A stretch of DNA of 63,587 bases, filler included, from 6 parts of 6 records of this genome joined end to end with filler, not necessarily neighbours in it, one strand, 5' to 3'; shown: positions 1 through 8,381, numbered from the whole stretch's first letter. Translations and numbers: made by a program. Notes: a model not told the origin generated them from the letters alone.

Positions 1-52
1 TCAGGTAGTTAACACCCGTTCTTTTCTCTTGTATTACGTTTATCTTGGGTGG

Positions 53-85
53 AAAGGTGAGTAAAAGGTGAGTAAAAGGTGAGTG
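53..85 (+). repeat. Three tandem 11-bp repeats AAAGGTGAGT(A/G); candidate integrase arm-type sites
   Basis: Copies at 53-63, 64-74 and 75-85; an identical 11-mer recurs at 8237-8247. Confidence 0.8.
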
Positions 86-595
86 GGGGAGAATTGCTTT
101 TAAGCATAGTTCGCGTCAGTTTTTTTGCAACCAGCAGGTCAGCTTTTATAATATGACAAATTTATTAGTATGGTTGTTCGCGAAGTCGTAAGTGCTTCCA
201 GCAGCAGGATTTCAGGTGTGAAAGCTGGCAACATTAAATTTCTTTTTTTTGAGAAAAAATTAATATGAACTTAAAATTAAGATTGACAAAATCATAACAC
301 TAAGAATATTAGCAGCAAAATAAATGCACCGCATATTGTTCGTATAAATGTTGGTATGCGTGAACTTGCGACTTTTAATTTGACTTTTGAGCTGTACATG
401 GTCGGGGGCAGCTTCAAGGAGTTTATATTTATGCGTTATATATTTTCATTACCCCGTATTGGCTATTTTGCTGTGATTATTTTACTTCATTTCAATTCTG
501 TTTTGTCCAGCCATTGGTCTTTCCTATCGAATTGTACGCCTACCTATTGTTCGCATTAATCTCGCAGTTTTTATTTAAATTTACGCTTAAGTTTC

Positions 596-622
596 TAAAG
601 ATATGAAATGTATTGCCGATAT
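596..622 (+). promoter_or_regulatory. Sigma-28 (FliA)-type promoter
   Basis: TAAA (596-599), 15-bp spacer, GCCGATAT (615-622); consensus is TAAA-N15-GCCGATAA. It lies 86 bp upstream of the ATG at 709, which has a GGAGG RBS. Confidence 0.75.
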
Positions 623-708
623 AATCAGTGTGCTCATGCGTTGATTAATTATGTGTGATTAAACTTAATTTATAGTTTTAAATTTTCTAACAACCACTGG
701 AGGATGAT

Positions 709-2298
709 ATGGCTTCTCCTATTTCAGGTCAGGGTAATGGGATTGAATCGCATTTAGTCTCAGAAGATAGATTGAATAAAAATCGGGAAACTCAGGCTGC
801 AAATGCTGTGGGTAAGATTAAGCAGGAATCCGGCAAAGAGGGGCTGGTCCAGAGCGACAAGATTGAGCTTTCTGACGATGCTAAGAACTTGGCTAAGTAT
901 CAGCAGGAGCCCTTGCAGCTTGCGGACGGGCAGTACTCTGTTACCGATAAGGCCCCGGAAGGCGCTACTACCCTGACCATGGCGAAAGCCACGACTCAAT
1001 CCGGGCGAACTTTGACCATCAATAAAGTCATGACAGGCGCAAGCGAAAATAATGAAGGTGGTAATTTCTTCGGTTTTCAGGCCAATGTTTACAAGCCTGA
1101 TGGGAAGCTTGAGTACAGCTTTTTTCTGCAAAAAGACACGATATTCAGTGAGAACGCCGATGGTTCGCTTAATGTGCAGGATTACGTGAAGGGTGCGGAA
1201 ACTGACGGTGATGACATAATCATCGGGCAGGAAGGCAAGGATCTGAGCGGCGGCAAGGGTAATGACACTATAGTTGATCTGTACAGCGAGAAAAACCAAA
1301 ACGGTCAGGACGGTATAAGTTCTTCAATTGATGGCGGTGACGGTGACGACACAATCATTGCCAAGGGCGGTATGCATAACAAGACGGTCACCACCGGGGC
1401 AGGGAACGATACCATCAAGGTTGATGGAAGTATCGGTAATTCCAGTATTGATACCGGGGCTGGAGATGACAACATCATTGTTTCCGGAAATTTCTCTTCA
1501 GTTACTGGCACTGATATTAAGATGGGTGATGGTGCGGATAGTCTTAATATGACAGGTGAAAATGCTGAACTGAATGGAACAATTGATACCGGAGCCGGGG
1601 ATGACAGTATTAACATGGCTAAAGGTGGAAAAGTAAATGGTGATGTCAATACAGGAGCAGGTGCTGATAACATATCTGTGCGTAAGGGCCGGATTGACGG
1701 GGATATCAAGACCGGTTCTGGTGATGACAATGTCGTAACTGGCTTGTTCGCAGGGACCATAGATACGGGTTCAGGTAATGACACGATCAAGGCAGAGAAT
1801 GTCAGTGGGGATATCAATACAGGAGCTGGAGACGATACGCTGAAAGTTGGCGAGGGAGGTATAGGGTCGTCAAATATCAGTATGGGGGCTGGAGATGATG
1901 TTCTTGATGCCAAGAATGGCGACGTTCACTTTAGTACAATCAATACCGGAAGCGGCAATGATACAGTTACTGTAATGGATACTTCGGACAGCACGATTAA
2001 TCTCGGTAGCGGCAATGATAGTCTTACTGCCCGTCTGGTGATGTCTAATTCGAGATTATACGGTGGTGACGGAGATGACTCGCTGAATGTTCTTGCTAGT
2101 GTTTTGGACAGCTTCATTGATATGGGGGCAGGTAATGACATGGTTCATATTGCGGGTGATCTGGTTAACAGCATTCTCGCAATGGGAGAAGGTGAAGAAG
2201 ACAGTGTGTTTATCGGTGGTGGTGCTTCCAGCAGCAAAATCTCCGGTGTGAAAGATAGCAACCTTTGGATTATGGGGAAGCGGGCTGATAAATATTAA
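709..2298 (+). CDS. Ca-binding beta-roll/RTX-like repeat protein with FlgM-like N-terminal motif
   Basis: 529 aa; many (I/V)xTG(A/S)G(D/N)DxI repeats; DKIELSDDAK near residue 50; no signal peptide. Confidence 0.85.
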   Translation: MASPISGQGNGIESHLVSEDRLNKNRETQAANAVGKIKQESGKEGLVQSDKIELSDDAKNLAKYQQEPLQLADGQYSVTDKAPEGATTLTMAKATTQSGRTLTINKVMTGASENNEGGNFFGFQANVYKPDGKLEYSFFLQKDTIFSENADGSLNVQDYVKGAETDGDDIIIGQEGKDLSGGKGNDTIVDLYSEKNQNGQDGISSSIDGGDGDDTIIAKGGMHNKTVTTGAGNDTIKVDGSIGNSSIDTGAGDDNIIVSGNFSSVTGTDIKMGDGADSLNMTGENAELNGTIDTGAGDDSINMAKGGKVNGDVNTGAGADNISVRKGRIDGDIKTGSGDDNVVTGLFAGTIDTGSGNDTIKAENVSGDINTGAGDDTLKVGEGGIGSSNISMGAGDDVLDAKNGDVHFSTINTGSGNDTVTVMDTSDSTINLGSGNDSLTARLVMSNSRLYGGDGDDSLNVLASVLDSFIDMGAGNDMVHIAGDLVNSILAMGEGEEDSVFIGGGASSSKISGVKDSNLWIMGKRADKY

Positions 2299-2341
2299 AA
2301 TACATTTTCCAATAACCCTTTAACTAACTAGGAGAAAAATT

Positions 2342-4267
2342 ATGGCAACAGATGTAAATGCCAAAATTCTTGAACTACACCAAGGAGCAACAAGGGCGTT
2401 CCGTTCTGATACTTTTAAGGACTTCACGATGCTTTGTTCTGGCTGGGGAGCTAACCCTGCCCCTAACGATCCGCAAATTACCCGAGGTGATTGGACAATT
2501 GTAGAACACCTTAATCCAAATGGTTATAATGCGTTAAGCCATGAGTTTCGTGTTACCGGAACTGCAAATGACCTTATTGAAGGAGATGTGGCCGGTTACA
2601 CTTTTGTACAAAATGATGTTGTCCCGGATGGCCCCGGATATAAGCCTCCTGTTGCGGCAAGTCCGTCAGACGGTAGGTATAAAGGACCGAAAAGGTCGTT
2701 TAATGACATTATTAAAGCCGGTGGCGGTAATGATGTTGTTTATGGAAAAACAGGTAATGATGAGCTGCATGGGGGCAGCGGTGATGACTATCTTAATGGT
2801 GGTTCCGGAAGAGATCAGCTTTTTGGTGGCACCGGTGATGATGTTCTTGTCGGTGATGCCCAAGATATAAAGATTGATGGCGGGGCAGGTCACGATGTGC
2901 TCATTGCCAATGGTGACATGTCTCAAGTCAAGATTTTGGGCATCGAAGAGATTTATGGTGGCGCCGGGGATGATAATATTAGAATTAATGGTGACACTGC
3001 GGCTACCCTCGTTGGCGGCGCAGGCAATGACATTCTCGAAGGTGGGAATGGCAACGACACCCTCATCGGTGGCGCAGGCGCAGACGTGCTCAAAGGCGGC
3101 GCAGGCGACGACATTATCGTAGCAGATAATGACGACACTCTTGTTGACGGCGGCGAAGGCACAGACAGCCTGTCTGTCAGCGGTTCCTTCAACATGGCTA
3201 ATACTGTTAACGTAGAGAAAGCTATCGGCAGCGATGCAGCGAACAGCATTATTGGTAACGCCGAGAACAATATCATCTACGGTAACGGCGGTAACGACAC
3301 CCTCGAAGGTGGTGCAGGCAACGACCAGCTTATTGGCGGTGCAGGTGCGGACGTGCTCAAGGGTGGTGCTGGTGATGATATTATCGCAGCAGACAACGAG
3401 GATACCCTTGTTGATGGTGGCGAAGGCATAGACAGCCTGTCTATCAGCGGTTCCTTCGACATGGCTAATACTACCAGTGTAGAAAAAGTTTTCGGCGGCA
3501 CAGCAGCGGACACTGTTGTCGGTAATGCTGAGAATAATATGATTTGGGGTAATGGCGGCAATGATACCATTTCCGGTGGTGCCGGTAATGACCAGCTTGT
3601 TGGCGGAAGCGGTGACGACACCCTCGACGGCGGCGCAGATAACGATGTGCTGCTCGGTGGTTCCGGTGCGGATGTACTTAAAGGCGGAGCTGGTGTTGAC
3701 GTTGCGGATTATTCTGCATCTTCAGCTGCGGTTACTGTTAACCTTACTGCTGGAACAGGCACCGGCGGTGATGCCCAGGGCGATACCCTTAGCGAAATTG
3801 AAAGTGTGCAAGGGTCCGCTCATAATGACACCATCGCCGGTGCTGCGAACGGTAACATCTTATACGGTGGTAACGGAAATGACAACCTGCTCGGCTTGGG
3901 TGGTGATGATATTCTTAACGGCGGTGCCGGTAACGATGCTTTGTACGGCGGTTCCGGCACAGACCATCTCCTCGGCGGAGCCGGTGACGATATCTACGTT
4001 TTCCAGCAAGGCAACCAGAACGATGTTGTTTATGAAGACGCCAACGGCGGAACAGATACAGCCTATATCAAGGATTTCAGTAGTGTAGGTATCTATAAGA
4101 ACGGTAATAACCTCCTCATTGCTGCCAACGGCAACAAGGATATCATGCAGTTCAAAGACTGGTATTCTTCCAAGTCCGTAGAGAAATTCTACTTTGAAGC
4201 AGTTAATGCCATGTACTCTGCTGACCAGATGGCAAGCATGGCTGTGGATATCACTCCCGCGTCATAA
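2342..4267 (+). CDS. RTX hemolysin-type Ca-binding protein, probable T1SS substrate
   Basis: 641 aa; many GGxGxDxLx nonapeptides; C-terminal 'NLLI...DIMQFKDWY' segment typical of RTX C-termini; AGGAG RBS. Confidence 0.9.
   Translation: MATDVNAKILELHQGATRAFRSDTFKDFTMLCSGWGANPAPNDPQITRGDWTIVEHLNPNGYNALSHEFRVTGTANDLIEGDVAGYTFVQNDVVPDGPGYKPPVAASPSDGRYKGPKRSFNDIIKAGGGNDVVYGKTGNDELHGGSGDDYLNGGSGRDQLFGGTGDDVLVGDAQDIKIDGGAGHDVLIANGDMSQVKILGIEEIYGGAGDDNIRINGDTAATLVGGAGNDILEGGNGNDTLIGGAGADVLKGGAGDDIIVADNDDTLVDGGEGTDSLSVSGSFNMANTVNVEKAIGSDAANSIIGNAENNIIYGNGGNDTLEGGAGNDQLIGGAGADVLKGGAGDDIIAADNEDTLVDGGEGIDSLSISGSFDMANTTSVEKVFGGTAADTVVGNAENNMIWGNGGNDTISGGAGNDQLVGGSGDDTLDGGADNDVLLGGSGADVLKGGAGVDVADYSASSAAVTVNLTAGTGTGGDAQGDTLSEIESVQGSAHNDTIAGAANGNILYGGNGNDNLLGLGGDDILNGGAGNDALYGGSGTDHLLGGAGDDIYVFQQGNQNDVVYEDANGGTDTAYIKDFSSVGIYKNGNNLLIAANGNKDIMQFKDWYSSKSVEKFYFEAVNAMYSADQMASMAVDITPAS
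3068..3601 (+). repeat. Intragenic tandem duplication, 267-nt (89-aa) period, in the RTX gene
   Basis: GGAGADVLKGGAGDDII...DTLVDGGEG.DSLS.SGSF.MANT..VEK...GNAENN.I.GNGGNDT starts at 3068 and again at 3335. Confidence 0.85.
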
Positions 4268-4279
4268 GTTGAATATTGA

Positions 4280-4308
4280 AAGGCCCGGAGATTTGTTTTC
4301 CGGGCCTT
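4280..4308 (+). terminator. Stem-loop between the RTX genes and the T1SS genes (terminator/attenuator or mRNA stabiliser)
   Basis: AAGGCCCGGA / TCCGGGCCTT 10-bp stem with only a weak U tail. Confidence 0.6.
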
Positions 4309-4353
4309 ATTCTATACGGCAGTAACTTTTCCGATATCATTAGGCGATTCTCA

Positions 4354-6510
4354 ATGCAGCACGATACCCAGTCGGCAGCTCTTGACTCAGGTCTGGAGTG
4401 CCTTGTTTTTATTGCGCGTTTTCACAATATCCCGATTTCCACGGAAGCTGTCCGTCATGAGTACCCTCCCCGTGGGGAATTCATGGACAGTATTGAAATT
4501 CTGCGGGCGGCAAAAGCGATCAAATTAAAAGCCAAGGAAGCCCGGAAAGATTTTGACGAGCTTTCAATACTGCCCACCCCGGCAATGTTCATGGGGCGGG
4601 ACGGGGTCTGGAAAGTTCTGGGCCGGGTCAGCGACGGTACAGCCCTGATCAGGGACCCCCGCAAGGACAGTGCGGAACTGGTCAAGGAAGAGGAACTGGA
4701 AAAGGACTGGAGCGGGCAGGTCATCATGCTCGCCCGTATGGGCATCCTGCCGGAAGGATTGCGTAAGTTTAACCTTAGCTGGTTTATTCCTTCGATCATT
4801 AAGTATAAAAAGCTGTTTGGCGAAGTCCTGCTGGCTTCATTTTTTTTACAGATATTCGCCCTTGTTACTCCTTTGTTCTTTCAGGTGGTGGTGGATAAGG
4901 TGTTGGTCAACAAGGGGCTGACCACGCTTGATGTACTTGCCGTCGGACTCATGATTGTTTCGGTTTTCGAAGTGGTACTCGGCGGCATGCGCACATGGCT
5001 TTTTTCGCATACGGCCTACCGGGTGGATGTCATGCTCGGTGCACGGCTTTTTAATCATATGGTCAAACTGCCCATCGCCTATTTCAACTCTCGGAGGGTG
5101 GGGGATTCCGTTGCCCGTGTGCGGGAACTGGAGAGTTTGCGCCGTTTTCTGACCGGATCGACTTTAACCCTAATAATCGACCTTTGCTTCACTGTAGTGT
5201 TTTTTATTGCCATGCTCTGTTACTCCCCGTTGCTGACCGGAGTCGTGGCGGCAATCATTCCGTTGTATGTGATCCTTTCCTTCTGTATTACCCCGATCCT
5301 GCGTAAATTTCTGGAAGATAAATTCCAGCGCGGTGCTGAGAATCAGGCTTTTCTGGTGGAGACCATTTCGGATATCCACACTGTTAAGGCTATGGCTGTT
5401 GAACCGCAGTTCCAAAGGCGCTGGGAAGATACCATTGCCAATTACGTGCGTTCGGCTTTCCGGGCGGACAATCTGGGTAACTTTGCGGTGCAGGCCACGC
5501 AATTCATTAATAAATTAACCACCGTGCTGGTTATCTGGTTTGGTGCGCGGGCTGTTATCGCAGGGGATATGAGTATCGGGCAGCTTGTGGCTTTCAATAT
5601 GTTTGCCCAGCGGGTCAGCGGGCCGATCCTGCGTCTTGCCAAGGTCTGGCAGGATCTCCAGCAGGCCGGGGTTTCCCTTGAGCGGCTTGGGGATATTCTC
5701 AACAACCCCACGGAAGCAGTGAATAATGCCGCAACTAATCCGGGAACCATCAAGGGACAGATCAGATTTGAGAATGTAAGTTTCAGGTATCGCCCGGATG
5801 GACCTTTTATTCTGGATAATATCAACCTGACCGTTAATCCCGGAGAATCGATAGGTATTGTGGGCCGTTCCGGTTCAGGTAAAAGCACTCTGACTAGTTT
5901 GTTGCAGCGGTTCTATCCACCTGAAAACGGACGTGTGCTGGTGGATGGTATCGATCTCAATTTGGTTGAAGTCTCATGGTTGCGCAGGCAGATCGGGGTG
6001 GTCTTGCAGGAAAGCAAGCTATTCAATCGTGACGTCCGGGACAACATTGCCCTGTCCGATCCCGGTGTGGATATGAATCGGGTCATGCATGCCGCAGCCC
6101 TTGCCGGGGCGCATGATTTTATCCTTGAGTTGGCCGAAGGTTATTCCACCATAGTTGGAGAACAGGGATCAACACTTTCCGGCGGTCAGCGGCAGCGAAT
6201 CGCCATTGCCCGCGCCTTGCTGACCAACCCGAGAATCCTGATTTTGGACGAAGCCACTAGTGCCCTTGATTACGAATCTGAACATATTATCCAAAACAAT
6301 ATGAGTGCCATCAGTCAGAATCGCACTGTAATGGTTATTGCGCATCGGCTTTCCACTATTCGCCTCTGTGACCGAATCATCGTTATGGATAAGGGTAAGA
6401 TAGTAGAACAAGGTACACATTCAGATCTTATCGCTCAGAATGGATACTACAGAAAACTCTGGGATTATCAGAATAAGGATATGGGAGGCGGCAGTGAAGA
6501 AGCGGCGTAA
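4354..6510 (+). CDS. hlyB: Type I secretion ABC transporter, HlyB family, with C39-like domain
   Basis: N-terminal DSGLECL (Ser at the C39 catalytic Cys position); ABC TM domain; Walker A GRSGSGKS; LSGGQRQR; ILDEATSALD. ATG 4354 preferred over TTG 4276, whose reading frame runs through the hairpin. Confidence 0.93.
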   Translation: MQHDTQSAALDSGLECLVFIARFHNIPISTEAVRHEYPPRGEFMDSIEILRAAKAIKLKAKEARKDFDELSILPTPAMFMGRDGVWKVLGRVSDGTALIRDPRKDSAELVKEEELEKDWSGQVIMLARMGILPEGLRKFNLSWFIPSIIKYKKLFGEVLLASFFLQIFALVTPLFFQVVVDKVLVNKGLTTLDVLAVGLMIVSVFEVVLGGMRTWLFSHTAYRVDVMLGARLFNHMVKLPIAYFNSRRVGDSVARVRELESLRRFLTGSTLTLIIDLCFTVVFFIAMLCYSPLLTGVVAAIIPLYVILSFCITPILRKFLEDKFQRGAENQAFLVETISDIHTVKAMAVEPQFQRRWEDTIANYVRSAFRADNLGNFAVQATQFINKLTTVLVIWFGARAVIAGDMSIGQLVAFNMFAQRVSGPILRLAKVWQDLQQAGVSLERLGDILNNPTEAVNNAATNPGTIKGQIRFENVSFRYRPDGPFILDNINLTVNPGESIGIVGRSGSGKSTLTSLLQRFYPPENGRVLVDGIDLNLVEVSWLRRQIGVVLQESKLFNRDVRDNIALSDPGVDMNRVMHAAALAGAHDFILELAEGYSTIVGEQGSTLSGGQRQRIAIARALLTNPRILILDEATSALDYESEHIIQNNMSAISQNRTVMVIAHRLSTIRLCDRIIVMDKGKIVEQGTHSDLIAQNGYYRKLWDYQNKDMGGGSEEAA

Positions 6511-7909
6511 GGGAATACTTCTGCATCTGCCCATGCGTGCCTACTCAAGCCTCGGCGGCTGGGCGGGAAAGATGGTTGAATCAAAGCCGAAGCAGGAAAC
6601 TGAATTTATGCCCGGAGCACTTGAGGTGGTGGAAACTCCTCCATCTCCCACGGGACGTATAATCATCAGGACAATTGTTCTTTTTGTCGTCATTTCAGTT
6701 CTCTGGGCAACCTTCAGTCGTATTGATGTGGTTGCCACTGCATCAGGCAAGATTATTCCCAGCGGCAAGGCCAAGATTATCCAGCCTGCCGAGATAGGTG
6801 TTGTTCAACAGATTTTGGTTAAGGAAGGACAGAGCGTAAATAAAGGCGACCTGCTTATTTCTTTGGACCCGACAATTAATGAAGCTGATATTACAGAGTT
6901 TGAGAATCAACTTATCCGGGCATATTGTGACAATATCCTCTACAGCGCATTGAGTCGTTGGAAAGTCGGTACTTCGGTCGGTAAAAAACTGGTTTTTACT
7001 GAGGGGACAGATTCCAACTTGAAGCTGCTTTATCAGCACCGTTTTGAATATGAGGCGATGGCCATTAACGACAAGTTGAGCGGCATTAACGGTGAGATAG
7101 AAAAAGACAAGATTCATCAGCAGAACATTAAGCATCAGATCAAGAAAAAATCTGCTGTTCTGGAGATCATTACGAAACGCACCGAGGCCATGCGCAAGCT
7201 TTACAAGCAGGATTCTGCCTCCGAACATGACTGGCTTTTTCAGGAACAGAAGCGTGTAGCAGCAGAGCAGGATTATGAGTCCGCCAAGCAGGAGGAGCAG
7301 GAGTGTCTTGCCTCCATTGAAAAGCTAGAGCGTGATAAGAAACAGGTTATATCTGAATTTAGGCGCGACACATTGCATAAAAAGTCGGATGCGCAAAATA
7401 TGATTGAAATGCTCCAGCAGCGTCTGGCCAAAGCTGAACAACGCAACAGATTGCAGCAACTGACAGCCCCTGTTGATGGTGAAGTTCAGCAGCTCTCCGT
7501 GCATACCATCGGCGGAGTGGTTAAGGAAGCGCAGCCGCTTATGGTTATCGTTCCGGAGCAAAGTGTGCTGGAGGTTGAAGCCAGTATACTTAACCGTGAT
7601 ATCGGTTTTGTTAAAGAAGGGCAGTTGGCGGAGGTCAAACTGGAAGCTTTTCCATACACAGAATACGGGTCCATTCCCGGTGAAGTCATGTCCGTTTCCA
7701 GTGACGCCGTGCAGGACAGGGAAGGAAATCTTACCTTTTTGTGCCGGGTGAAGCTTAATCAGGATTTTATTCCGGTGAATGGGCAGAAGGTTAGATTAAT
7801 CCCCGGTATGCGCGCAACAGCGGAAGTTGCAATTCGTAAACGCAGGCTCATCACCTATTTTCTTTCCCCGCTGATGAAGTACAAAACTGAAAGTTTGAGG
7901 GAACGGTAG
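6494..7909 (+). CDS. hlyD: Type I secretion membrane fusion protein, HlyD family
   Basis: EFMPGALEVVETPPSP, single TM, coiled coil, APVDGEVQQL, EAFPYTEYG, PGMRATAEV. GTG at 6494 has a GGGAGG RBS. Confidence 0.93.
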   Translation: MKKRRKGILLHLPMRAYSSLGGWAGKMVESKPKQETEFMPGALEVVETPPSPTGRIIIRTIVLFVVISVLWATFSRIDVVATASGKIIPSGKAKIIQPAEIGVVQQILVKEGQSVNKGDLLISLDPTINEADITEFENQLIRAYCDNILYSALSRWKVGTSVGKKLVFTEGTDSNLKLLYQHRFEYEAMAINDKLSGINGEIEKDKIHQQNIKHQIKKKSAVLEIITKRTEAMRKLYKQDSASEHDWLFQEQKRVAAEQDYESAKQEEQECLASIEKLERDKKQVISEFRRDTLHKKSDAQNMIEMLQQRLAKAEQRNRLQQLTAPVDGEVQQLSVHTIGGVVKEAQPLMVIVPEQSVLEVEASILNRDIGFVKEGQLAEVKLEAFPYTEYGSIPGEVMSVSSDAVQDREGNLTFLCRVKLNQDFIPVNGQKVRLIPGMRATAEVAIRKRRLITYFLSPLMKYKTESLRER

Positions 7910-8190
7910 CGACGGACTTGTGAGTCTGTGTTTTTTATGGTTGCAGTCCACAAAGTGTACGCAAATTTGCGAATAAAATAGGTGCTGCTCCAACAGACAC
8001 GTCTGTGGACTGGGATGTTTCAAAGTTATTGCCGTCCGTGTTCCACGGATGCGGTTTGTATTCAGGCTGAAATTTCCGAGAAGTTTTCCGTGGGAAGGGA
8101 CTGCAACCCTCAGCGTCAGCTGAATCAAGAGTCCATGATCCAGCGTCGTTTTCAGTACCTGCGGAAAGGCTGGCCCCTTATAGAAGGTAT

Positions 8191-8215
8191 AAAAAAGCCT
8201 GTTCATCCGAACAGG
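8191..8215 (-). terminator. Rho-independent terminator downstream of the tRNA fragment
   Basis: Minus strand reads CCTGTTC-GGAT-GAACAGG-C-TTTTTT. Confidence 0.7.
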
Positions 8216-8224
8216 ATTGAAAAA

Positions 8225-8381
8225 TTAGGCTAGTAAAAAGGTGAGTAGATTTGTTAGTTATTCACTGTTTTCCGCTGTAACCTATTGAAATAATTGGCTG
8301 GCAATACGGAGTTCGAACCTGTGGCCTTCAGCTCCAGAGGCTACGGAATCGTATCCGGTGTATGTTATTTCAGGTAGTTAA
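8225..8381. other. attP-like junction: two arm repeats, inverted IHF-like sites, tRNA core
   Basis: Arms: TTAGGCTAGTA (8225-8235, degenerate) and AAAGGTGAGTA (8237-8247). TAACCTATTGAAATAA (8278-8293) and TTATTTCAGGTAGTTA (8365-8380) are a 12/16 inverted pair resembling WATCAANNNNTTR. Confidence 0.7.
8295..8341 (-). pseudogene. Degenerate tRNA 3' half (most like tRNA-Arg CCG; Gln CTG not excluded)
   Basis: Minus strand GCCTCTGGAGCTGAAGGCCACAGGTTCGAACTCCGTATTGCCAGCCA shows anticodon loop, variable loop, GGTTCGAA T-loop and CCA end. T-stem is imperfect and there is no 5' half. Confidence 0.7.

Follow-up and report, generated by a model that had tools for sequence, protein, structure and literature searches.

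A probable decayed, integrase-less tRNA-Arg(CCG) island carrying a type I secretion operon in a Desulfovibrio-like bacterium

We consider it probable that contig 1 of the DNA analyzed here is a decayed, integrase-less island of a family that inserts at tRNA-Arg(CCG), most likely located distally in a tandem with a related element. The observations behind this reading are the anatomy of the ends, their homology to integrase-linked sites, the missing integrase and, in run X1, a second P' arm; its tandem position and any present mobility are what we infer. The window, that is, the whole stretch of 63,587 nt that was analyzed, consists of six contigs joined by N/TTAATTAATTAA spacers, with contig 1 at positions 1-8381 (GC 0.474). 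Contig 1 matches, with 0 differences over 8381 nt, a Logan contig of run X1. The contigs of the window fall into two GC classes (about 0.35 and about 0.47), so run X1 is a community. The source of contig 1 is taken to be a Desulfovibrio-like bacterium.

Cargo genes and loss of the integrase

As the preliminary description had stated, the unit carries a four-gene secretion cargo, comprising two repeat proteins (one of them RTX), an HlyB-like ABC exporter and an HlyD-like fusion protein, all encoded on the plus strand. The first gene (709..2298) encodes a 529-aa protein that has GxGxD-type repeats but no Pfam match and could be considered a putative type I secretion substrate because of its repeats and its position. 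It is followed by genes for a 641-aa RTX calcium-binding repeat protein (2342..4267; PF00353, E 4e-60), the exporter, which has an N-terminal C39-type domain (4276..6510; PF00664/PF00005/PF03412), and the HlyD-family membrane fusion protein (6440..7909; PF13437). The closest relative was found in G001 (Desulfovibrio sp. UBA2564), with 84% nucleotide identity across the operon and 91% amino acid identity of the HlyD-family protein (best aligned segment, query residues 1-489). The three parts of a type I secretion (RTX) operon, namely an ABC exporter, a membrane fusion protein and a substrate with RTX repeats, were all identified by Pfam searches, and no outer-membrane component was present in the 8.4-kb unit. 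Two minor features lie upstream on the same strand: a possible short remnant at 192..235, which over 44 nt resembles the 3' end of the 529-aa gene at 84% (10/14 aa; a weak match, E 0.035), and a 67-aa ORF without a family match (356..559) in a region that is conserved in G001:C163. None of the small ORFs had a Pfam or PHROGs match.

The reported absence of an integrase from the unit was borne out by a tblastn search of the whole window with the G001 integrase (best E 1.9), and Pfam, PHROGs and this same search found no integration or transfer genes in the unit. Replication initiator and partition genes were likewise absent among the ORFs scanned in the unit, and the other five window contigs contained no integrase, intact tRNA-Arg or prophage. 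The place of the glycosyltransferase and integrase genes of relatives is occupied in contig 1 by a minus-strand fragment (7980..8177) resembling a cadherin/Ig-repeat adhesin of G001:C19 (42% amino acid identity over 69 aa), such that roughly 3.8 kb of G001 with these two genes corresponds to about 280 bp in contig 1.

Anatomy of the ends and the tRNA-derived core

Contig 1 begins and ends with the same 12-mer, TCAGGTAGTTAA (1-12 and 8370-8381), which has no other exact copy in the window; the chance of an exact end-to-end match of this length is arithmetically ~6e-8. When the ends are joined there, the P' arm, an element-specific segment, a tRNA 3' half and the P arm form the attP-like junction that had been described. 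Alignments with relatives confirmed that family-specific P arm and P' arm sequences are both present in contig 1. No long inverted repeat was found at its ends.

The P' arm consists of three tandem 11-nt arm-type repeats, AAAGGTGAGT(A/G), on the plus strand (53..85), of which relatives have one or two. It is separated from the 12-mer by a conserved spacer (13..52, plus strand) that could be aligned with G001:C19, G078, G155, G123, G010 and an IMG/VR provirus; the block TCAG..AGTTAACACCC was kept in all seven att sites aligned. The P arm (8225..8247, plus strand) comprises two arm-type repeats, a degenerate one at 8225-8235 (7/11 positions) and an exact one at 8237-8247, in agreement with the earlier account of three tandem repeats at one end and a fourth exact copy at the other. 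Exact AAAGGTGAGTR occurs four times in the 63.6 kb (53-63, 64-74, 75-85 and 8237-8247), always at the ends of contig 1, and allowing up to one mismatch gave 11 matches versus 2.07 expected (maximum of 5 in 100 shuffles). Beside the P arm, a hairpin with an adjoining A run (8191..8215; stem 8198-8204/8209-8215) corresponds to one that in relatives directly follows the integrase stop codon. On the core side, a conserved block with CTATTGAAATAAT (8278..8294) adjoins the tRNA 3' end and is nearly invariant in 4/4 P-arm sequences. It should be noted that the candidate IHF-like blocks are conserved among relatives and that, as IHF sites, they are motif resemblances only.

In the attP of phage lambda, the core is surrounded by IHF sites and by the arm sites P1, P2 and P'1-3. 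The junction of contig 1 is similar in that two plus three direct arm-type repeats and A/T-rich conserved blocks flank a core within about 230 bp; it differs in having a tRNA 3' half as core, in encoding no integrase or Xis, in the putative status of its arm and IHF sites, and in that its relatives have only one or two P' repeats.

The core region (8295..8342, minus strand) holds the 3' half of tRNA-Arg(CCG) in degenerate form, reaching from the anticodon loop to the CCA end. ARAGORN detected no tRNA in the window and Rfam gave no tRNA match in 7900-8381 at E<=10, so the identity of the fragment was taken from G001, whose intact tRNA-Arg(CCG) matches it at 42 of its 3' 47 nt; the proposed minus-strand tRNA 3' half was thereby upheld. 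The two matches that Rfam did give in 7900-8381 were sub-threshold sRNA matches (OmrA-B at 17.9 bits versus a cut-off of 40), and both reflect the hairpin. The changes relative to G001 are an anticodon CTG in place of CCG, a broken T stem and one acceptor base. Because the half is degenerate, its use as an attP would rebuild a defective tRNA. Such degeneracy would be expected of a displaced copy, and matches that of G001's own distal copy. Beyond the anticodon loop, the bases at 8343-8381 are indeed not a tRNA 5' half; comparison with relatives defined an element-specific segment, X, in its place (8343..8369, plus strand), and the same crossover boundary at the anticodon loop was found in G078 and G155.

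Relatives sharing the same ends

The predicted neighbour of the intact cognate tRNA, a tyrosine integrase accompanied by the same arm repeats, was identified in G001, G155, G123 and G010. In G001, the sequence 3' of hlyD contains a glycosyltransferase gene, a gene for a 419-aa tyrosine integrase (PF00589; phrog_1 integrase), the hairpin, two arm repeats, the conserved block and an intact tRNA-Arg(CCG). The far end of relatives' elements consists of a tRNA half, segment X, the 12-mer and then arm repeats. G155 contains an entire element on one contig: the integrase (74% amino acid identity), arms and tRNA are at one end, and the tRNA half, X, the 12-mer block and two arm repeats are at the other, about 43 kb away. 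The end-to-start join of contig 1 is contiguous DNA in G001:C19, G078, G155 and G123, and thus represents natural contiguous DNA.

Among the 201 family genomes sampled for integrases and junctions, integrases of at least 74% identity were present in four, each within about 150 nt of a tRNA-Arg match, and the junction of X, the 48-nt att segment N that begins within it (see below) and a P' arm was present in five. The P arm and tRNA half together with X and N occurred in none of the 201, and matches covered one side or the other. No precedent for a tandem junction was thus seen in this family, which counts against the tandem reading.

Between genera, conservation of the att segment is about 80-85%, and the att ends flank differing cargo: prophage genes in G078, and type I secretion, adhesin and glycosyltransferase genes in G001, while the similarly arranged element of G155 is filed as a provirus in IMG/VR. 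In G078, the direct repeat covers the part of the tRNA between anticodon loop and CCA end, identical at 46/46 nt. The tRNA-proximal side of G078 bears four copies of another repeat, GTGTACC, together with a 459-aa ORF without an integrase match, and from this arrangement it looks like a hybrid of two elements. These data define a tRNA-Arg(CCG) integration system of Desulfovibrionaceae, with its integrase, arm repeats, conserved 20-nt block and anticodon-loop crossover. Prophages and a secretion/adhesin island are delimited by the same ends, which is a clear case of phage integration modules that are reused for non-phage cargo and then decay.

Several searches extended beyond these genomes. A viral scan with the 20-nt N-block pattern gave two loci, both integrated proviruses in attR form, and no free-phage attP; the integrase search of viral contigs found relatives of 35-37% identity only. 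Megablast of contig 1 against plasmids and E. coli genomes gave no match. The same pattern in metagenomes matched 70 sites at 67 loci, all of which were discarded (61 from an unrelated repeat family and nine by chance). The type I secretion locus of G002 (Maridesulfovibrio) was also considered and rejected as the same system, being neither at tRNA-Arg nor bounded by such att ends; the element at the tRNA-Arg(CCG) of G002 is another one, 27 kb long, that lacks these arm repeats.

Assembly context, alternative readings and known systems

In the preliminary description, an excised circle was one of two readings of the joined ends. Logan contigs presumably come from an assembly at k=31, in which an isolated cycle would end in a 30-nt overlap (8399 nt in total). 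The overlap of contig 1 is 12 nt, and therefore 18 k-mers should lie in a node shared with other sequence. This implies a shared node of 48 nt, from which the 12-mer follows arithmetically, and the 12-mer is no evidence of a closed circle. The node corresponds to the segment N (8352-8381 plus 13-30): its first 30 nt are the k-1 overlap at the contig end (8352..8381, plus strand, including the 12-mer at 8370-8381), and its last 30 nt are positions 1..30 (plus strand, including the 12-mer at 1-12), common to at least one other X1 contig. For contig-level scans, a note of caution is that short identical end words of a de Bruijn contig need not mean a circle, since they can arise when a shared node is shorter than 2(k-1).

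A second P'-arm contig of X1 (record 2, 555 nt) leaves the same 48-nt node: it ends at window base 1, matches 1-41 with one mismatch and then bears a different P' arm, with another arm-repeat arrangement. A second in-edge of the node is presumed but was not seen among the pieces listed for X1, which also counts against the tandem reading. No joint that leads back from the end of contig 1 to its start is listed for X1, although contigs could not show one here. Depth was 226.6 for contig 1, 171.1 for the second P'-arm contig and 226.3 for a 49-kb contig of X1; the difference between 226.6 and 171.1, a further point against the tandem reading, is as compatible with a second strain or additional copies of the unit as with local coverage noise. 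Run X2 contained no more than a relative of roughly 90% whose left end differs, run X3 contained almost nothing, and neither run is taken as evidence of habitat or of absence.

The P arm and tRNA half of contig 1 run into X and N, not into a tRNA 5' half, so it is not a lone island beside a functional tRNA. The parent family would be Desulfovibrionaceae integrative elements whose phage-type tyrosine integrase inserts into the anticodon-loop region of tRNA-Arg(CCG). The element has kept its P arm (hairpin, two repeats and block), P' arm (12-mer block and three repeats), tRNA-derived core and, as cargo, the type I secretion operon with two repeat-protein substrates, whereas the integrase gene and neighbouring glycosyltransferase gene, both present in the closest relative, have been replaced by the about 280 bp that include the adhesin gene fragment. 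Its position is most likely distal in a tRNA-Arg tandem array, adjoining a second element of the same att family, whose integrase could in principle excise the island in trans or together with itself, in a manner similar to cis-mobilizable elements (CIMEs).

Other readings were also weighed. The joined ends have the exact P'-core-P order of an attP and the graph permits a path from the end through N to the start, as for a free 8,369-bp circle excised by an integrase in trans, alongside or instead of the integrated form; however, the unit has no replication or partition gene and its overlap is 12 nt rather than 30 nt. We regard such a circle as unlikely. The depth excess over the other P'-arm contig could reflect extra circular copies, yet a non-replicating circle at about chromosomal depth (226.6 versus 226.3) would be unexpected, and the depth evidence is weak. 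The lack of this junction type in all 201 sampled chromosomes speaks for a circle, whereas reintegration through the degenerate half would yield a defective tRNA-Arg. It seems quite improbable that the unit is a live non-autonomous cassette, in which a co-resident tRNA-Arg(CCG) prophage integrase excises the 8,369-bp circle appreciably and circles explain the depth excess; if true, whole secretion operons would travel between hosts through att-site piracy, carried by temperate phages of sulfate reducers.

Very doubtful, too, is the reading that two related strains or species, with one att-family element each, are mixed in the sample and merged by the graph at the 48-nt segment, in which case the contig would be silent on its neighbours. 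The two GC classes in the window, the differing depths and the cross-genus conservation of the att segment are in line with a mixture; nevertheless, the P arm and tRNA half are linked to X and N within contig 1 across more than 31 nt, and thus the element is not in simple integrated form in its own genome, where N must in any case be followed by the element's own P' arm or by a second one. The further proposal of an integron-like store, in which many operon cassettes with tRNA-derived att bounds are shuffled by one integrase, is hardly credible. Identical att ends do surround differing cargo in different genomes and the arm repeats here are expanded to three copies, but genomes whose loci were compared had at most two tRNA-Arg-derived sites per locus, the other cargoes were whole prophages of about 38-43 kb rather than operon cassettes, and the metagenome scan yielded no relevant locus. 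No integron integrase, attI or attC was found, and the unit is bounded by a tRNA-derived core and direct arm repeats, not by attC imperfect inverted repeats. The integron-like label is accordingly unsupported, and tandem integrase-less islands have already been described.

Thus, the decayed, possibly hitch-hiking island favored here is of a known kind. ICESt1/CIME work is reportedly that of Pavlovic in 2004 and Bellanger in 2011. Tandem islands that lack an integrase and lie at tRNA or tmRNA genes are described in PMC5704250 and PMC3146451, and CIMEs and the tandem accretion of islands are defined in the former. CIMEs are understood here as elements without integration and transfer genes that keep functional attL and attR and lie in tandem with an integrase-providing element. 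The contig 1 element is similar in having lost integration genes while keeping both att-type ends, in its derivation by deletion from an integrase-bearing relative (by comparison with G001) and in probably lying beside a related element able to supply an integrase. It differs in that its parent has a prophage-type integrase at tRNA-Arg(CCG) in Desulfovibrionaceae and is not a streptococcal ICE, that its core is degenerate (five changes including the anticodon), and that its tandem partner and mobilisation are deduced only. Dehalococcoides ssrA islands, according to PMC3146451, lie in tandem downstream of the small RNA gene, each bounded by a 3'-end direct repeat; fifteen without an integration module carry operons (rdhA) and were proposed by the authors to be cis-mobilizable. 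Those islands depend on a serine recombinase, and their tmRNA repeat is 20 bp long, whereas the system of contig 1 has a tyrosine integrase, arm-type repeats and a roughly 47-nt tRNA half, with no array of more than two seen. Crossover in the anticodon loop is familiar from tRNA-integrating prophages and genomic islands. The copy in contig 1 differs from these in having neither an integrase nor an adjoining intact tRNA, and resembles them in its tRNA direct repeat from the anticodon loop to the CCA end and in the integrase that adjoins the tRNA 3' end in relatives.

Termini of contig 1 and the repeated 12-mer

Contig 1 occupies positions 1-8381 of the window (GC content 0.474), in which the contigs are separated by N runs and TTAATTAATTAA spacers. 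The six contigs (1-63587) are mutually unrelated; by GC content they form two groups, one near 0.35 and one at about 0.46-0.49. They carry housekeeping genes, such as those for leucyl-tRNA synthetase, an FGGY kinase, a catalase-peroxidase, a multihaem cytochrome and FG-GAP proteins. Therefore, the source is a community and not one genome.

The 12-mer TCAGGTAGTTAA reported for both ends of contig 1 was indeed found at 1-12 and 8370-8381, with no further exact copy in the window. The arm-type repeats of these ends are AAAGGTGAGTA repeats. The window contains four exact copies of the 11-mer AAAGGTGAGTR, which are confined to the ends of contig 1 (three tandem copies at 53-85 and one at 8237-8247), and a degenerate copy could be read at 8225-8235; with one mismatch allowed, 11 matches were observed versus 2.07 expected.

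Contig 1 matches, without a single difference over its 8381 nt, a Logan contig of the public sequencing run X1 (record 1), whose depth is 226.6. Logan contigs are, we assume, de Bruijn contigs built at k=31. At this word length, an isolated circular unitig is computed to have an end repeat of 30 bases and a length of 8399 nt, as against the 12 bases repeated here. On the simplest reading, contig 1 overlaps a single shared node by k-1 bases at each end (its first 30 and its last 30); this node is 48 nt long (8352-8381 plus 13-30; 2x30-48 = 12) and is kept separate because other sequence enters and leaves it. Record 2 of the same run is 555 nt long, with a depth of 171.1, and its end coincides with window base 1; it shares window positions 1-41 with one mismatch and then continues with another arrangement of the same arm motif. 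The depth of the last bin of contig 1 (252 versus 226.6) fits another contig overlapping this end. Thus, the 12-mer shows that a conserved att segment follows the end of contig 1. It does not show that this segment returns into the same contig.

An integrase-linked att family at tRNA-Arg(CCG)

Species-representative genomes were scanned with the HlyD-like protein of contig 1, and two loci were identified. The one in a Maridesulfovibrio chromosome showed 69% identity to this protein. In Desulfovibrio sp. UBA2564 (G001), the best aligned segment (query residues 1-489) was 91% identical at the amino acid level, and the locus matched window positions 3359-7912 at 84% nucleotide identity. The operon of G001 is followed by a family-4 glycosyltransferase and a 419-aa tyrosine integrase (PF00589; phrog_1 'integrase'), beyond which lie a hairpin, two copies of the arm motif found in contig 1, the block CTATTGAAATAATTGG and, on the minus strand, an intact tRNA-Arg(CCG). 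Integrases at least 74% identical were present in 4 of 201 sampled Desulfovibrionaceae genomes (G001, G123, G010 and G155), in every case no more than about 150 nt from the tRNA match. The proposed search, for the cognate tRNA with an adjacent integrase and shared arm repeats, was thus positive in relatives.

Neither ARAGORN (whole window) nor Rfam (7900-8381, E<=10) gave a tRNA, so the tRNA half of contig 1 needed outside evidence. This was provided by G001: positions 8191-8342 align at 79% with its hairpin-to-tRNA stretch, and 8295-8341 are identical at 42 of 47 positions to the last 47 nt of its tRNA-Arg(CCG). The five differences affect the anticodon (CCG to CTG), one acceptor base and three T-arm positions (the last T-loop base and two bases in the 3' T-stem strand, with loss of stem pairing); therefore, the fragment could not belong to a working tRNA. 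The homology reaches as far as the 5' edge of the anticodon loop (8342); beyond it, 8343-8381 are unrelated to a tRNA 5' half, just as the preliminary description had stated. Its claim that the unit lacks an integrase also held: none was found by tblastn in the whole window (best E 1.9). Where G001 has roughly 3.8 kb with the glycosyltransferase and the integrase, about 280 bp stands in contig 1, including a fragment resembling a cadherin/Ig-repeat adhesin of G001 (42% over 69 aa).

The other end of the island was located on a second contig of G001 (C19), where a degenerate tRNA-Arg 3' half, a segment resembling 8343-8369 (hereafter X), the 12-mer block, the sequence of window positions 13-23 and one arm repeat are contiguous. 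This stretch, flanked by the 3' end of a large adhesin gene on one side and housekeeping genes on the other, is the distal junction (attR) of the island, the integrase-tRNA end being the proximal one. A search with this junction in the 201 genomes matched its tRNA part in 120, and the match extended into X, the 12-mer and the P' region in five (G001, G078, G010, G123 and G155). The complete arrangement is present on a single contig in G155: an integrase (74% amino acid identity), a hairpin, two arm repeats, the conserved block and an intact tRNA-Arg(CCG) at one end, and about 43 kb away a tRNA half, X, the 12-mer block and two arm repeats. This element is listed in IMG/VR as a 43.6-kb provirus, and its ORF layout is similar to that of the G078 element, whose products include capsid, tail and primase proteins. 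The distal junction of G078 contains an exact 46-nt tRNA copy, while its proximal side lacks the integrase and arms of the G001/G155 type, so this element looks like a hybrid.

Alignment of four P-arm (8225-8247 in contig 1) and seven P'-side (53-85) sites showed the arm repeats, the CTATTGAAATAAT block and TCAG..AGTTAACACCC to be strongly conserved. By these alignments, the joined ends of contig 1 read P' arm, X, tRNA-derived core and P arm, the order expected of the attP of this family. Lambda attP has two plus three arm sites together with IHF sites, and the contig 1 junction, with its candidate arm and IHF sites, may be likened to it. We conclude that contig 1 carries a type I secretion operon and belongs to a phage-derived integrative family specific for tRNA-Arg(CCG), of which it is a decayed member without an integrase.

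Such an element fits a known kind. Cis-mobilizable elements (CIMEs) are defined as elements without integration and transfer genes but with attL and attR; they arise by decay, and also when a second element is added at an occupied site by accretion (PMC5704250). In Dehalococcoides, tandem islands lie downstream of ssrA, and 15 of them have no integration module but still carry operons; the authors of that study proposed that they are cis-mobilizable or fixed (PMC3146451). Contig 1 is not an integron: it has no IntI, attI or attC, and carries as cargo a four-gene operon with its own upstream region. Overall, the observation behind the preliminary description was confirmed and its interpretation partly supported: the attP-like anatomy and the integrase-tRNA link stood, and the 'integron-like' reading found no support.

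Other att-like sites were also observed. A second one in G001 (C62, 4442-4660) combines an exact 30-nt copy of the tRNA-Arg 3' end with the conserved block, a variant arm motif (AAAGGTGGGTA) present as an inverted pair, and a hairpin. Its neighbours are hsdR, a type I restriction gene, on one side and core genes (ApbE, NqrF-like) on the other. Upstream of the site are two GTGTACC-type repeats resembling those beside the G078 tRNA, which suggests a second integrase family at the same tRNA. In Maridesulfovibrio (G002, C1 1033337-1060785), a 27-kb element with genes for portal, LPD38, KAP NTPase and ParA proteins but no AAGGTGAGT arms is bounded on one side by tRNA-Arg(CCG) and on the other by a 50-nt copy of the 3' half of this tRNA. 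Thus, tRNA-Arg(CCG) is a recurrent integration site in Desulfovibrionaceae. The 20-nt pattern ATTTCAGNNAGTTAACACCC also occurs within an abundant repeat of a few metagenome projects (L049-L115; 61 sites, sometimes two per contig and about 8.6-8.7 kb apart), which is unrelated to the finding on contig 1.

Circle or tandem array

In the simple integrated form, the P arm adjoins a whole tRNA. In contig 1, the P arm and the tRNA half are continuous with X and the 48-nt segment, so its element is not in this form. We favour a tandem array in which this element follows, on the distal side, another member of its att family. An excised circle (or a self-tandem) remains the alternative, and two observations speak against the array: the configuration of P arm, core, X and 48-nt segment was seen in none of the 201 sampled genomes, and the two P'-arm contigs differ in depth (226.6 versus 171.1). 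In favour of the array, the unit has no replication function, a second P' arm exists in run X1, and the tRNA half of contig 1 is degenerate, as in displaced copies (the distal copy of G001 differs from its own tRNA; that of G078 is exact). The depth of contig 1, about that of a 49-kb contig in the same run (226.3), is a weak further argument for the array.

Secretion operon and its variation

The cargo comprises an HlyB-like ABC exporter with a C39-type domain, an HlyD-family fusion protein, a 641-aa RTX protein and, encoded directly upstream of the latter, a 529-aa protein (709-2298) with no Pfam match. The 529-aa protein contains about a dozen GxGxD-type repeats, (I/V)(D/N)TG(A/S)G(D/N)D; it probably serves as a second T1SS substrate, unclassified and beta-roll-like. 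Upstream of the operon, 192-235 are 84% identical over 44 nt to 2222-2265 at the 3' end of its gene and look like a relic of the C-terminus of a lost paralogue. A relative of the operon, roughly 90% identical, was found in run X2 from another study (records 9 and 13). It lacks the counterpart of 1604-3049, which covers parts of both substrate genes, and its sequence to the left of base 152 differs from that of contig 1; therefore, the substrate genes and the left end differ among strains.
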